Source: Chloroflexota bacterium (GTDB lineage: Bacteria; Chloroflexota; Limnocylindria; Limnocylindrales; CSP1-4). From it: a stretch of DNA of 64,000 nt. Made by a program: the position numbers and the translations under genes. Location of the stretch: assembly GCA_021802825.1 (NCBI GenBank), contig JAJZRG010000009.1:10010-74009 (forward strand). Direction: 5' to 3'. Below the pieces are notes generated by a model. That model was not told where the DNA came from, made no database searches, and worked only from the letters and a program-made list of their open reading frames with translations. Positions 1 to 60,915 of the stretch are shown piece by piece; within the stretch, counting starts at the first letter, position 1; each line of letters opens with the position of its first letter.

Positions 1-253
1 GGTGGGCCGCGACGTCGGGCAGGCCGTTCTGGAGCACGTAGAGCAGGCGCCCGCCGGCGAGCGCCGAGGCGCCGACCCAGATCGCGGCGTCCTCGACGAG
101 GCCCGTGGCGAGGTGCGCCCGGCGGGCCCCCGCGAGCGCGATCGCGACCGCGACGGCGATGGCGAGGGCGACGAACAGGCCGTACCAGCGGATCTCGACC
201 CCGCCGAGGGAGAAGGCGACGGGGTCGAGCCCGATGGGGAGGAGGAGGGGCAT
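1..253 (-). CDS. lgt: Prolipoprotein diacylglyceryl transferase (Lgt), N-terminal part only; gene runs off the left edge
   Basis: Not in ORF track (no stop in window). Reverse translation from ATG 253..251 gives MPLLLPIGLDPVAFSLGGVEIRWYGLFVALAIAV...GGRLLYVLQNGLPDVAAH. This is colinear with the complete Lgt at 60100..60915 (IDPVAFRVAGLDIRWYGL...GGRLLYMIQNGLPDLAADPAH). ATGA overlap with the upstream HMA gene stop. Confidence 0.8.
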   Translation of the reverse strand, partial: MPLLLPIGLDPVAFSLGGVEIRWYGLFVALAIAVAVAIALAGARRAHLATGLVEDAAIWVGASALAGGRLLYVLQNGLPDVAAH

Positions 254-549
254 CAGGGGCGGCCGAGGAGGCGGTCGACGAGGCCGCGGTCCGACCCCGG
301 CGGGAGCACCTCGGCCGCGTCGAGGTCCGCCTCGTAGCCGGCTGCGGCGACCGCCGCCGCGAGCGCCGCGTCGGGGACGACCGACGGCTCGCGGCGGACG
401 GTCGCGGTCTCGTGCCGCAGGTCCACGGACACCTTCGCGACCCCGGGCACCTTGCCGACCGCGCGCACGATCCGGTTGACGCAGGAGCCGCACGTCATCC
501 CGCGGACCGGGAAGCGGACGACCTCGAGCCCGCCGGGCTGCGCGGTCAC
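253..549 (-). CDS. Heavy-metal-associated (HMA) copper chaperone, CopZ-like
   Basis: C-terminal part of ORF 253..1194. GTG at 549 overlaps the CcdA-like stop (GTGA). Sequence VTAQPGGLEVVRFPVRGMTCGSCVNRIVRAVGKVPGVAKVSVDL carries the canonical GMTCxxC motif and HMA fold pattern. Confidence 0.85.
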   Translation of the reverse strand: MTAQPGGLEVVRFPVRGMTCGSCVNRIVRAVGKVPGVAKVSVDLRHETATVRREPSVVPDAALAAAVAAAGYEADLDAAEVLPPGSDRGLVDRLLGRP

Positions 550-1400
550 ATCGACACCATCAGGCCGAAGCTCATGGCGATGATCGCGAGCGCGATGCCG
601 GCCTTGACCCACGGCGAGTTCGCGCGGTTCCACCGACCGATCTGGCCCAGGACCCGCCGGTTGCTGACAGCGAGGAGCATCGCGACCAGCGGCACGATGA
701 ACGCGATGTTGTAGAGCGCGAGCAGGGCGTAGCCGGTGGCGCCGCCGCCCGATGCGTGGAGCACCGCGGTGATCTGGAGGTACATCGCACCGGAGCACGG
801 GACGGTGCAGATCCCGACCAGGACGCCCGCGATGAGCATCCCGGCGAGCCCGCCACGCTCCATCGCCTTGCGCATCCTCCCGTGCGTGCCCGACGGCGCC
901 ATCATCGAAGGGCCCACGCCCGGCAGGAACACGTCCTTGAGCATCCAGAGGGCCATGCCGAGGGCGATGACCGACGCGACGCGGGCGACGAGGTGGTCTC
1001 GGCCCATCCAGCCCAGGAAGGTCAGCAGGCCGAGGCCGATGATGAAGTACGTCACGAACACCGCGCCCACATACAGCGAGCCCGCGCCGAGCAGGCGCCG
1101 CCGGGCCTCGGCCGTCGGCGAGCCGCTCGCGGTCACCGCGTTGACGAGCGTGAGCGTGAAGGTCGCGAACAGGACGAGGAGCGCGAAGGCGCACGGGTTG
1201 AAGCCGTCGAGGAACCCGGCGGCGAGGACCGCCGGGATCGTCAGGCCGCCGAACGCGCCGGCCTCGAAGGGGACCGCGAGTACGTAGGCCGACGCCGTGA
1301 CGCCGACGACCGCGAGCATGGCGGCGAGGACGACCGCCGGCAGGGGCCAGCCCGCCACGAGGCGGTGCGAAGGGAGGGGCGCGGCGGGCTGGGCGGTCAT
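546..1400 (-). CDS. CcdA/DsbD-family transmembrane thiol-disulfide protein (copy 1)
   Basis: ORF 546..1643, internal ATG at 1400 (MTAQPAAPL), ATGA overlap with the upstream cupredoxin stop. Polytopic membrane protein with FLDGFNPCAF and GICTVPCSG motifs typical of the DsbD_2/CcdA transmembrane family. Paralog of 5374..6225. Confidence 0.8.
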   Translation of the reverse strand: MTAQPAAPLPSHRLVAGWPLPAVVLAAMLAVVGVTASAYVLAVPFEAGAFGGLTIPAVLAAGFLDGFNPCAFALLVLFATFTLTLVNAVTASGSPTAEARRRLLGAGSLYVGAVFVTYFIIGLGLLTFLGWMGRDHLVARVASVIALGMALWMLKDVFLPGVGPSMMAPSGTHGRMRKAMERGGLAGMLIAGVLVGICTVPCSGAMYLQITAVLHASGGGATGYALLALYNIAFIVPLVAMLLAVSNRRVLGQIGRWNRANSPWVKAGIALAIIAMSFGLMVSM

Positions 1401-1969
1401 CCGACTGCCGCTCCGACCGACGCGGAGGCCGGCTTGACGACGATCTTGCCGTGCATCTGGGGGGCGTCCTTGCCGCCGCAGCAGCTCTCGCACCACACGT
1501 CGTACGTTCCCGGCTTGTTCGGAACGGTCCAGGTGACCATCTTGGTGCTCTCGGCCGGCAGTTGCTCGTGAAGCCCGAGGTCGGGCGAGACCATCGTGTG
1601 CACGCCGCCCGTGAGGTGCGGTGCCGCGTCCTGGGTCCACCACTTGAAGGTGACGGTCTGGCCGGCGGTCACGTCGATCTCCGACGGCGTGAACCCGGCC
1701 ATGGAGCTCTGGACGTCGATGATGCCGCTTGCTGCGGCGTCCGACGGCCGCCGTAGGAAGTCGCCGAACGCCAAGTACGTCCCAACCGCCAGCACCGCGA
1801 CCACGATGCCGCCGAAGGCGAGCTTGCGCAGCATGTCCATTCGGGCGGCGTGCTGACGTTCGGCGACCCGCTGGCCGCGGCGCTCGACGACCGCCTGGTG
1901 CAGAGCTTCGCGCTCCTGCTCCCGCCGTTCGCGGCGGGGGGCCGGCTGCTGGTTGACGTGGTCAGTCAT
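1397..1969 (-). CDS. Membrane-anchored CuA-like cupredoxin with C-x2-CC-GG-x5-M motif (copy 1)
   Basis: ORF 1397..2173, ATG at 1969 (MTDHVNQQ). One N-terminal TM helix, then a COX2-like beta-sandwich pattern: HTMVSPDLGLHEQLPAESTKMVTWTVPNKPGTYDVWCESCCGGKDAPQMHGKIVV. Paralog of 6222..6707. Confidence 0.7.
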   Translation of the reverse strand: MTDHVNQQPAPRRERREQEREALHQAVVERRGQRVAERQHAARMDMLRKLAFGGIVVAVLAVGTYLAFGDFLRRPSDAAASGIIDVQSSMAGFTPSEIDVTAGQTVTFKWWTQDAAPHLTGGVHTMVSPDLGLHEQLPAESTKMVTWTVPNKPGTYDVWCESCCGGKDAPQMHGKIVVKPASASVGAAVG

Positions 1970-59703: not shown

Positions 59704-59791
59704 GGAGCGACACGGACGGTGTCACTCCAAGGCCTTGACGCGGATGGAGCCGGCGCGAGGCCGACACGCCGGCCGATCCGGCGACCACGAC

Positions 59792-60103
59792 TCAGTGGCA
59801 GCCCCCGCGATGCCCTGTCGACTGGTCGGTTGCGGGGGTCGCCTGGTCGGCTTCGGCGCCGGTCGCCTGGCTCTCGGACGCCACGTCCTCACCCCCGTGG
59901 GCCTGGTGGCCGCCGTGGCCACCGTGACCGAACAGGTGCATGCCGATCATGCCCCCGAAGAGCCCAATCGACAGCAGTGTCGACGGCGTCACGATGCCGA
60001 GGTACAGGAGGGCGGCTGCGATCGCGGCTACGGCGAGCGCCGGGTACATCCAGCGTGGGCGGTTCGCGGCGCGCTGGCCCGTGTGATCTGCGTGCGTGAT
60101 CAT
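59792..60103 (-). CDS. Small His-rich membrane protein (DUF2933-like)
   Basis: ATG 60103 (MITHADHTGQ), ATGA overlap with the lgt stop. Two TM helices, then GMIGMHLFGHGGHGGHQAHGG and C-terminal HRGGCH. Confidence 0.6.
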   Translation of the reverse strand: MITHADHTGQRAANRPRWMYPALAVAAIAAALLYLGIVTPSTLLSIGLFGGMIGMHLFGHGGHGGHQAHGGEDVASESQATGAEADQATPATDQSTGHRGGCH

Positions 60104-60915
60104 GCGACTACCTCCAGATGCGCCGACGGCGCGATGATGGAATGAGAGCGACGACGAGCGAGAACGGCCAGTCCGACGGCGGAGATGCCGATAGCGATCC
60201 CGATCAGCTGGGCCGTCTTGAGGCCGAGCAGAACGCTCGGCTCGTCGCGCAGGAAGAACAGGGCGAAGCGGATGGCGGCCAGGCCGCCCAGGTACGTGGC
60301 GGCTAGGGCGCCGGGGACCATGAAGGCGCGGCGCCTGATCGCCCACAGGGCGAGGAACAGGCCGAGCAGCGCGATCGCCTCGTAAGCCTGGGTCGGGTGG
60401 AGCGGCGTGTTCAGCGGCGCCATGGCGGCAGGGTTTCGGTAGATGACAGCCCAGGGGAGGGTTGTCGGGACGCCGGCGGAGTCGCCGCCGATCAGGCACC
60501 CGACGTGGCCGATCGCCTGGCCGATGGCCGCGGCTGGCGCCGCTACGTCGAGCGCCGTCATCCAGCTCACGCCACGGCGACGGGCCAGGGCGATCAGCGC
60601 CAACGCTCCGGCTATCAGCCCTCCGTAGAACGAGAGGCCGCCAGTCCACACCATCAGCAGATGGGCGGGGTCAGCGGCGAGATCGGGCAGACCGTTCTGA
60701 ATCATGTACAGGAGCCGGCCTCCCGCCAGCGAGGCGACCGCCACCCACAGGACGGCGTCGGCGAGCAGGCCCGCCGGGAGCCTCCGGCGACGGGCCTCAT
60801 GGTCGGCGACCGAGTAGGCCACGAGCATCGCGAGGACGAGGGTCAGCCCATACCAGCGGATGTCGAGCCCCGCAACCCTGAAGGCGACGGGGTCGATATC
60901 GATAATGAACGGCAT
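60100..60915 (-). CDS. lgt: Prolipoprotein diacylglyceryl transferase
   Basis: 271 aa. IDPVAFRVAGLDIRWYGL, GGLSFYGGLIAG, GHVGCLIGGDSAG, HPTQAYEA: canonical Lgt layout. Confidence 0.9.
   Translation of the reverse strand: MPFIIDIDPVAFRVAGLDIRWYGLTLVLAMLVAYSVADHEARRRRLPAGLLADAVLWVAVASLAGGRLLYMIQNGLPDLAADPAHLLMVWTGGLSFYGGLIAGALALIALARRRGVSWMTALDVAAPAAAIGQAIGHVGCLIGGDSAGVPTTLPWAVIYRNPAAMAPLNTPLHPTQAYEAIALLGLFLALWAIRRRAFMVPGALAATYLGGLAAIRFALFFLRDEPSVLLGLKTAQLIGIAIGISAVGLAVLARRRSHSIIAPSAHLEVVA

Follow-up and report, generated by a model that had tools for sequence, protein, structure and literature searches.

The stretch of DNA analysed here (the window, 64,000 nucleotides of contig JAJZRG010000009.1 from a Chloroflexota bacterium) carries, inside an island of metal-related genes, four genes of the Lgt family and one of the Lit (DUF1461) family. 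The window has a G+C content of 69–74% and matches public metagenome contigs identically (ENA ERZ27237050 k141_531430); the metal island in it is genuine, with CsoR-like, cupredoxin, HMA, YHS, CopD-like, P-type ATPase, multicopper oxidase (MCO) and ccm genes by their Pfam labels. The Lgt-family genes fall into two classes, a short one (a complete copy and a copy cut by the left edge) and an extended one (ext1 and ext2), with the positions given in Table 1. A sequence-only reading of the window had proposed this set of genes, and it is borne out at the curated Pfam cut-offs (LGT PF01790, 24.9 bits; Lit PF07314, 24 bits). All four Lgt-family open reading frames (ORFs) exceed the LGT cut-off, with 179.5 bits for the complete short copy, 48 bits for the cut copy (N-terminal 84 aa only), 55 bits for ext1 and 54.6 bits for ext2, while the Lit-like protein scores 56.5 bits. 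The Lgt-family ORFs are intact, with GC3 values of 0.79–0.88.

A co-directional array on the minus strand, running from 14221 to 3990, is headed by a response regulator (RR) and then a histidine kinase (HK), continues with an HMA-like gene, a YHS gene, ext1, the Lit-like gene and two membrane proteins without an assigned family, and ends with the genes of a CsoR-family protein, a Cupredoxin_1 protein, a CcdA-like membrane protein and an adenylate-forming-like protein. At the left edge the gene order is Cupredoxin_1–CcdA-like–HMA–lgt (cut). Elsewhere in the window lie a nuo-like membrane-arm cluster, ccmABCDEFGH, the multicopper oxidase gene, PspA, an MCRA oleate hydratase, a P-type ATPase gene overlapping a CMAS gene, an M23 peptidase gene, and a YHS-EAL gene followed by p68-ext2; the run from a blue-copper cupredoxin to Cupredoxin_1, the short lgt and a His-rich protein is convergent with ext2. 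The operon contexts HMA–lgt, RR–HK–HMA(-like)–YHS–extended Lgt and cupredoxin...lgt–His-rich protein are therefore seen as first described. That each Lgt-family gene is the distal member of its operon is not, since ext1 is followed by the Lit-like gene and seven more genes on the same strand, and the complete short lgt by the His-rich gene. A promoter and terminator scan around ext1–Lit found nothing exceeding the shuffled expectation.

In E. coli Lgt, His103 is the proposed base, R143, N146, Y235 and R239 are crucial, and S198, E202 and R246 belong to the network around the phosphatidylglycerol (PG) head group (PMC8689077). When the three complete copies were checked for catalytic-residue conservation, as had been suggested for the extended paralogs, none was found to hold the E. 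coli catalytic set (H103, R143, N146, Y235 and R239, to which we added E151, E243, Y26 and G154 as reference positions). They also all miss the curated cut-off of the NCBIfam lgt equivalog TIGR00544 (118.9 bits), with 113.4 bits for the short copy and 28.2 and 22.9 bits for the extended ones.

The complete short copy had been taken for a canonical lgt, a description that its near miss of TIGR00544 and its residues do not allow. It aligns with E. coli Lgt over the full length (5azb, E = 1.9e-21, 30% identity), carries the signature GHVGCLIGGDSAG where E. coli has GRLGNFINGELWG, and shares with E. coli Lgt (5azb/5azc) Y26, G154, H196-P-x-Q, E202, R239, R246 and the charge topology, but it is changed by H103Y, R143H, N146C, E151D, Y235L and E243F. 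Among 120 sequences of this class (60–85% identical), Y26, Y103, H143, C146, D151, G154, R239, F243 and R246 are invariant, and L235 is present in 117/120. The loss of R143 and Y235 is confined to this class among the Lgt classes compared. The cut copy was likewise described as canonical-looking, yet its best matches are 126 proteins of the same GHxGC class (up to 61% identity and 96 bits, against no more than 40% and 62 bits for every R143-type class), and three relatives (loci L012, L014 and L019) have a second, syntenic GHxGC copy; because of this similarity and synteny, we assign it to the short class. The short-class operon is kept in relatives at 62% identity with the same gene order, namely (CsoR-like)–Cupredoxin_1–CcdA-like–small transmembrane (TM) protein–Cupredoxin_1–LGT–His-rich protein, and in the loci examined this class never stands beside lspA.

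Using the short copy as query, we searched 1.84 billion cluster representatives exhaustively and mapped the signatures of the nearest 150. Cys at position 146 predominates among them: 76 are of an RCC type (GRxGCFxxGCCxG), 37 of an RCD type, and 5 have the canonical YHRNEGYRE signature. Members with source names come from Deltaproteobacteria, Dehalococcoidia, Bacillota, Acidobacteriota and Ornithinimicrobium. One RCC-type protein is encoded in an ileS-lspA-lgt-def-fmt operon, with the lgt start overlapping the lspA end. Since this copy sits in such an operon, the combination Cys-146/Cys-151/Tyr-103 is almost certainly compatible with genuine Lgt function, to judge from gene context, and because the same residues occur in an lspA-linked Lgt, the E. 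coli residues are too narrow a yardstick. The motif GR[IV]GCFLTGCCAGR, earlier regarded as special to the extended paralogs, is the normal signature of this large Cys-146 branch. By these signatures, the branch is large and previously unremarked. As a separate observation, it is multi-phylum (representatives P0241–P0390; loci L093–L095) and usually has Cys or Asp at 151 and Tyr at 103. We had also considered the Cys-rich motif as a neofunctionalised metal site, a candidate withdrawn after the representative search and the lspA–lgt context.

These Cys-146 homologs (for example P0395, the lspA-linked protein from a Deltaproteobacteria metagenome-assembled genome, MAG) are the nearest relatives of the window proteins by sequence, with 38–45% identity to the short copy and 30% to the ext1 membrane domain. 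They share the core GRxGCFxxGCCxG with the extended paralogs and C146 with the short class. They differ from the window proteins in being 250–290 aa long with seven TM helices, a canonical charge bias and Y or H at 103; position 243 is mostly E in the RCC type and T or S in RCD-type members, and at least one of them lies in the housekeeping ileS-lspA-lgt-def-fmt operon and not in a metal island. Relative to this branch the short class deviates at R143H, Y235L and position 243, and the extended class at D103, L243 and position 26. In the reading set out below, the four window genes represent two island-specific, Chloroflexota-restricted subfamilies derived from the Cys-146 branch and not spare housekeeping copies.

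The extended family was aligned, together with E. coli Lgt, as 110 full-length homologs plus both window copies. Throughout these 112 sequences D103, R143, C146, C151, G154, Y235, R239, L243 and R246 are invariant, and P197, Q199 and E202 are also kept. Common to the extended copies and E. coli Lgt are R143, G154, P197, Q199, E202, Y235, R239 and R246, including the PG-binding residues R143, E202, Y235, R239 and R246; the differences are H103D, N146C, E151C, E243L and a position 26 that is mostly F or W. It had been thought that the two paralogs keep only the central Lgt signature. In fact, they align to the LGT profile over positions 14/45–213 of 240, that is, over TM1/2–TM6, Pfam LGT is matched by 108/108 family members (best E = 4.9e-23), and hhalign aligns the extended and short families over 152 columns (E = 1.7e-5), so the homology reaches well past the motif. 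Foldseek searches of the PDB with the full ext1 model or its membrane domain alone, run without a positive control, gave no match at E ≤ 0.001. Since neither these fold searches nor those against PDB sequences returned an Lgt, the relationship to Lgt rests on the Pfam profile and the hhalign comparison. A scan of one genome per species recovered 172 relatives of the extended paralog, essentially all in Chloroflexota MAGs, several of which carry 2–3 extended copies; where Lgt-family homologs have source names, these are "Candidatus Limnocylindrales" or Chloroflexota MAGs. The source is accordingly a soil-type Chloroflexota of the Limnocylindria type; an actinobacterial origin, first guessed from the G+C content, was dropped.

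In front of the membrane domain, the extended proteins do have the N-terminal extension described earlier, although its length is nearer to ~185 aa than to ~170 aa: a disordered, Arg-rich leader of ~55 aa is followed by a beta-sandwich of ~110 aa. The proposed structure prediction of this region was carried out with AlphaFold2 (AF2) on ext1 (pLDDT 86.5, pTM 0.78). The model has a disordered leader (1–58), an all-beta domain (60–170) and six long helices equated with TM1–TM6, while TM7 is missing and a hairpin replaces the periplasmic head domain. The beta domain found only weak FN3/Ig-like Foldseek matches. That it is a fused cupredoxin was rejected at the sequence level (hhalign probability <1% against three cupredoxin families, with 94% in a cupredoxin-versus-cupredoxin control), and no YHS or HMA fusion, which could have fixed the side on which the N-terminus lies, was found among the 108 extended-family members. 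One public gene call places the ext2 start at 58822 (293 aa), whereby the N-terminal domain is lost; because this domain is conserved across the family, the long start at 58528 (391 aa) is correct.

The two classes also differ in charge distribution. In the extended family, the N-flank, loop 2–3, loop 4–5 (which bears the Lgt signature) and the C-tail together carry a mean of 12.3 Lys plus Arg residues (K+R), against 0.9 on loops 1–2, 3–4 and 5–6, and this reversed bias is present in 108/108 sequences. The opposite, normal bias is found in 120/120 short-class proteins, in 131/134 Lgt-family representatives and in E. coli Lgt, whose cytoplasmic side is cationic and whose head faces the periplasm (PMC8689077). 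A hydrophobic segment preceding the beta domain occurs in 0/108 extended-family members. The canonical combination of seven TM helices, a cationic cytoplasmic side, and a catalytic face and head domain turned outward is predicted for all 120 short-class proteins and is not predicted for the extended class. Because the positive-inside rule is here applied to a reversed bias, the extended proteins are predicted to be inserted the opposite way; they are probably inverted, with the beta domain and the Lgt signature facing the cytoplasm. Such a topology fits the earlier suggestion that these paralogs may act on a different substrate.

The identification of a Lit-like protein also stands up well, through its Pfam match and the retention of the catalytic dyad of Lit, His85/His153 (PMC8275575). 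It falls below the TIGR01906 cut-off (52 versus 74.8 bits) and the NCBIfam Lit equivalog cut-off (24 versus 400 bits); by its sequence it is a member of the Lit family, with orthology not demonstrated. It belongs to the same Pfam family as B. cereus Lit (7b0o) and aligns with it at E = 3.8e-4, with H85, V89, H153 and F157 in register. The similarity is distant, the position of F149 being W or F and that of W162 being F, Y or W. Among the 15 relatives recovered, H85, V89 and F157 are present in 15/15 and H153 in 14/15. The loop charges are consistent with the N-in pattern of B. cereus Lit, which would place the His dyad on the outer face.

The proposal would have failed if these genes were unlinked to metal loci in relatives. 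We surveyed the 5-kb surroundings of 82 extended-family genes of other genomes, using hidden Markov models built from the window proteins; all counts are lower bounds, as many loci are short. A metal-type gene lies within this range in 62/82 cases, and the linkage is thus not peculiar to the window. YHS genes are found near 37 of the extended genes, P-type ATPases near 23, cupredoxins near 12–19, and HMA and Lit genes near 15 each, while a two-component system (RR and HK) lies 5′ of the extended gene in 13–14 relatives. YHS is the commonest immediate upstream partner on the same strand (17 of the 75 extended loci with enough flank, 23%). Clusters of the order ATPase–CMAS–YHS–Lit–extended Lgt occur in three relative loci (L029, L034 and L040), a recurrence that hints at a coupling between metal export and the modification of membrane lipids. 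The module of CsoR-family, Cupredoxin_1 and CcdA-like genes (5374..7069) recurs beside both Lgt subfamilies in relatives.

The closest known system is the lgt2-lit2 element. As reported by Armbruster et al. (2019) and relayed in PMC8275575 and PMC8689077, lit2 is copper-induced and co-transcribed with lgt2 in a copper-resistance mobile element of Listeria monocytogenes and Enterococcus spp. The statement in the sequence-only reading that a copper-induced lit travels with copper-resistance genes agrees with these accounts, and it extends to a second lgt. Accessory lgt and lit genes in copper operons are thus already known in Firmicutes, and those Lgts are canonical. When E. coli Lgt was searched by tblastn against plasmids, lgt was found on 547 of them. 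An E. faecium plasmid has the arrangement HK-RR-MCO-HMA ... TIGR01906(Lit2) / lgt-DUF2933 ... M23 peptidase, and a Phaeobacter plasmid has lgt adjoining a copper ATPase and MCO; all nine E. coli reference residues are present in the Enterococcus and Phaeobacter accessory Lgts. Like the lgt2-lit2 element, the window combines Lgt and Lit (with the catalytic His dyad) with a two-component system, MCO, HMA chaperone and efflux ATPase, and as on the Enterococcus plasmid a small His-rich DUF2933-type gene comes after lgt (on weak evidence in the window) and an M23 peptidase is nearby. Lgt and Lit genes among copper-resistance genes are present both in the window and in its relatives. The differences are nevertheless considerable. 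The window comes from a free-living Chloroflexota, the element from host-associated Firmicutes; the window has four Lgt-family genes where the element has one; no complete copy in the window carries the full set of nine reference residues that Firmicute Lgt2 has; and two copies, unlike Lgt2, have an N-terminal domain, no TM7 and a predicted inverted topology. What is new relative to the known theme is therefore the phylum, the number of copies, the non-canonical catalytic sets and one re-engineered subfamily.

The interpretation offered by the sequence-only reading is supported in part. Taken together, we read the window as part of a copper/metal-stress island of a Limnocylindria-type Chloroflexota with its own lipoprotein-modification module, a counterpart of the Firmicute lgt2-lit2 pair, and assign this reading as a whole a probability of about 0.5. 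The analysis establishes the identities of the genes, the residue patterns across the families, the conserved synteny and the charge bias; the orientation, activity, substrates and copper induction of the Lgt and Lit proteins of the window are inferred. Under metal stress, the short GHxGC protein, with seven TM helices, facing outward and encoded in a cupredoxin/CcdA-like/His-rich-protein operon, would act together with the Lit homolog and its intact His dyad on exported lipoproteins and alter their lipid anchor, much like Lit2 in Listeria. The extended class would have acquired a beta-sandwich on the cytoplasmic side, given up TM7 and reversed its charge bias, so that its catalytic face should be turned to the cytoplasm, beside the metallochaperone-like YHS/HMA proteins encoded upstream. 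Such proteins may apply Lgt-type lipid-binding chemistry to a partner or thiol at the cytoplasmic face and would no longer be ordinary prolipoprotein transferases. A bolder version, in which a flipped Lgt-fold enzyme transfers an S-diacylglyceryl or related lipid at the cytoplasmic face and thereby tethers the co-encoded, Cys-bearing YHS/HMA metallochaperone-like proteins to the inner leaflet beside the copper-exporting ATPase, is a speculation that we regard as quite improbable. Should it be true, it would provide the first bacterial case of Lgt-type lipidation of proteins from the cytoplasmic side, and would show that an enzyme family can change its sidedness.

Several points weigh against our reading of the island as a lipoprotein-modification module. 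The short class is without R143 and Y235, two residues that matter in E. coli Lgt (PMC8689077) and that every other Lgt class keeps, and by this pattern it may not be an active transferase. The window encodes no lipobox protein, and lipoprotein substrates in these organisms are assumed. Neither an lspA nor an R143-type housekeeping lgt of this lineage was found; when 20 representatives were examined by cluster name for an R143-type Lgt from Limnocylindria, only other phyla came up. The predicted inversion comes from the positive-inside rule, which is a predictor rather than a measurement, and the frequent adjacency of an inward-facing extended protein to an outward-facing Lit is unexplained. 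As to the fold, 5azb is outside the top 50 Foldseek matches for ext1, as a full model or as its membrane domain (searches that had no positive control), and the extended-family profile gave no Lgt match, 5azb included, among PDB sequences. Finally, about a quarter of the extended-family loci have no recognisable metal gene nearby.

One competing explanation is that all four proteins are ordinary outward-facing transferases, extra or copper-tolerant isoforms that sustain lipoprotein maturation while copper blocks lipobox thiols, as lgt2 would in Firmicutes, with the N-terminal domain a regulatory add-on and the charge inversion misleading. The fully canonical accessory lgt genes in the copper islands of Enterococcus and Phaeobacter plasmids speak for it, as do the housekeeping context that Cys at 146 and 151 tolerates, the retention of R143, E202, Y235, R239 and R246 in the extended family, the frequent adjacency of Lit, and a report, cited in PMC7387801, that copper disturbs lipoprotein acylation in E. 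coli. We nevertheless consider it unlikely. All 108 extended proteins would have to place ~12 K+R on the outer face and ~1 on the inner loops, no signal or anchor segment precedes the ~110-aa domain that follows the Arg-rich leader, TM7 is missing from the extended class, R143 and Y235 are lost in the short one, and the island encodes no lipobox substrates. On the last point, a lipobox pattern search over the window proteins gave three matches only, all of them shadow ORFs overlapping real genes, and the cupredoxins and MCO have uncleaved anchors without Cys; the earlier idea that specific cuproproteins are lipidated thus finds no credible lipobox gene in the window.

Alternatively, the Lgt-like proteins may be membrane scaffolds without transferase activity, with a pocket lined by Cys, His and Asp that binds Cu(I) or passes reducing equivalents on among the cytoplasmic YHS/HMA proteins, the CcdA-like transporter and the membrane-anchored cupredoxins. 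As potential ligands in the former active site, the extended class has invariant C146, C151/C152 and D103, and the short class has invariant H143, C146 and D151. Every operon partner is a metal protein rich in Cys, His or Met (YHS, HMA, Cupredoxin_1 with CxxCC, CcdA-like and the His-rich DUF2933-like protein), and the short class is without the residues required for PG binding in E. coli (PMC8689077). However, an Lgt that is linked to lspA and presumably active has this Cys motif too, and therefore the cysteines alone do not indicate metal binding. Moreover, the strict conservation of Lgt's phosphate/glycerol-binding network in the extended class would serve no purpose in a mere metal scaffold, and the Lgt fold forms a lipid cavity, not a through-channel (PMC8689077). 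This explanation is about as doubtful as the previous one. A last explanation, that the copies are duplicates in decay or stand beside metal genes by chance and have no role in the island, would agree with the substitutions at residues essential in E. coli and with the relatives that have no detectable metal genes nearby, but it is effectively refuted by conservation, since each subfamily has more than 100 homologs at 45–85% identity with dozens of invariant columns, the substituted positions included, the ORFs are intact with the GC3 values given above, operon order is kept down to 50–62% identity, and a YHS gene stands directly upstream in 23% of loci, much more often than would be expected of a gene so small and rare.

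Until now, the link between lipoprotein-acylation genes and copper resistance was known from mobile elements of Firmicutes, where it has partly been read in terms of host immunity (TLR2). Its multiplied occurrence in free-living Chloroflexota supports the proposal, discussed in PMC7387801, of copper itself as the general selective pressure on lipoprotein N-terminal chemistry. The Cys-146 branch, in which N146, H103 and E151, treated as essential, are replaced by Cys or Tyr even in an lspA-linked copy, bears on the mechanism of Lgt and on the design of Lgt-directed antibiotics. The subfamily of ~400 aa with a predicted cytoplasmic domain and a reversed bias provides a testable case of a membrane enzyme with possibly changed sidedness and substrate. 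Both the branch and the predicted inverted family may be of interest to specialists.

Table 1. Lgt-family and Lit-like genes of the window and the features around them
Positions	Strand	Feature	Remarks
1..253	-	5′ part (84 aa) of short Lgt-family gene	Truncated at window edge; GHxGC class
253..540	-	Small HMA (GMTCGSC), metallochaperone-like	Directly 5′ of cut lgt; start approximate; Pfam HMA 53.7 bits at residues 228-288 of ORF 253..1194
546..1643	-	Polytopic membrane protein, NPC...PC motifs, CcdA/DsbD-like appearance	Paralog of 5374..6225; start uncertain; weak SfLAP is the sole Pfam match; co-matches with p283 in relatives
1397..1837	-	Membrane-anchored Cupredoxin_1 protein, C-terminus WCESCCGG	Pfam Cupredoxin_1 45.6 bits
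5374..6225	-	CcdA-like membrane protein	Module 5374..7069
6222..6707	-	Cupredoxin_1, FCGICCGG	Module 5374..7069
6704..7069	-	CsoR-family gene without Cys	Pfam; module with Cupredoxin_1 and CcdA-like
9196..9879	-	Lit-family (DUF1461/TIGR01906) membrane protein	377 nt 3′ of ext1
10257..11450	-	ext1, extended Lgt-family protein, signature GRVGCFLTGCCAGR	Predicted inverted topology
11484..11714	-	YHS-domain protein, 76 aa, three Cys, His-rich tails, without signal peptide	Pfam YHS
11737..12024	-	HMA-like, degenerate site GLGCGG, single Cys	Pfam HMA
12063..13469	-	Histidine kinase	Pfam; two-component system heads array
13466..14221	-	Response regulator	Pfam; two-component system heads array
31712..32896	-	Multicopper oxidase, N-terminal membrane anchor, without lipobox	Pfam Cu-oxidase domains
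51358..53892	+	Heavy-metal-type P-type ATPase	Overlaps CMAS-family gene
53879..55210	+	CMAS-family (cyclopropane fatty-acyl phospholipid synthase) methyltransferase	Overlaps P-type ATPase gene
57022..58014	-	EAL (c-di-GMP phosphodiesterase) protein, N-terminal YHS-like domain	Divergent from p68-ext2; Pfam EAL 161 bits, YHS 18 bits (below cut-off)
58266..58472	+	Secreted Met/His-rich protein (p68), 68 aa	Directly 5′ of ext2
58528..59703	+	ext2, extended Lgt-family protein, 391 aa	54% full-length identity to ext1
59792..60103	-	103-aa membrane protein, His-rich tail MHLFGHGGHGGH...RGGCH, DUF2933-like	Overlaps end of short lgt; DUF2933 match sub-threshold (16 vs 21 bits)
60100..60915	-	Short Lgt-family protein, 271 aa, GHxGC class, seven TM helices	Canonical charge topology
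60928..61443	-	Cupredoxin_1 with C-terminal TM helices	5′ of short lgt
61434..61643	-	69-aa TM protein	5′ of short lgt
61747..62238	-	163-aa protein	5′ of short lgt
62243..62644	-	Blue-copper cupredoxin	5′ of short lgt

Some of the neighbouring genes have features of their own. The CsoR-family (Trns_repr_metal) protein contains no cysteine at all, so that a Cys-His-Cys Cu(I) site like that of CsoR is impossible; the protein is kept beside the Cupredoxin_1 and CcdA-like genes in relatives. The two CcdA-like paralogs have the motifs GFNPCAF and CTVPCSG, which recall the CcdA/DsbD thiol-disulfide transporters, with no CcdA/DsbD Pfam match, and each comes after a Cupredoxin_1 gene whose product ends in C-x2-CC-GG, which is not a blue-copper site. 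At the end of the array, a 475-aa protein (3990–5417, minus strand) with the adenylate-forming motif STSGTTG is PaaK/F390-synthetase-like in appearance without a Pfam match, and is found near extended Lgt genes in 4–5 relatives. Of the HMA-type sequences, the HMA-like protein upstream of the YHS gene has GLGCGG in place of CxxC, the small HMA at the left edge has a normal GMTCGSC, and the N-terminus of the P-type ATPase is also HMA-like in appearance without CxxC. The His-rich DUF2933-like family recurs 3′ of GHxGC lgt genes in relatives, and p68, whose mature part follows a signal peptide and is rich in Met and His, resembles a small secreted copper-binding protein.

The YHS-EAL protein may be a metal-sensing second-messenger enzyme, for which the YHS-adenylyl cyclase of M. 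phlei offers a comparison (PMC4626032); YHS-type matches in the position of its gene recur 5′ of extended Lgt genes in relatives. The nuo-like cluster (15589–24023, minus strand) encodes membrane-arm subunits only (NuoA, H, J, K and three antiporter-like), with a 428-aa protein without a Pfam match, a 52-aa YHS gene at its head and no peripheral-arm genes nearby. Between 39635 and 48538, PspA and a PspA-associated protein, an acyl-ACP thioesterase-like protein and the MCRA-family oleate hydratase form a set of membrane-stress and lipid genes inside the island. Beside the ccm genes (24188–25359, minus strand) lie a BlaI/CopY-family repressor (Penicillinase_R) and an M48/M56 peptidase-like membrane protein, a pair that also adjoins YHS–ATPase–extended Lgt in a relative (locus L007), at 52% identity.

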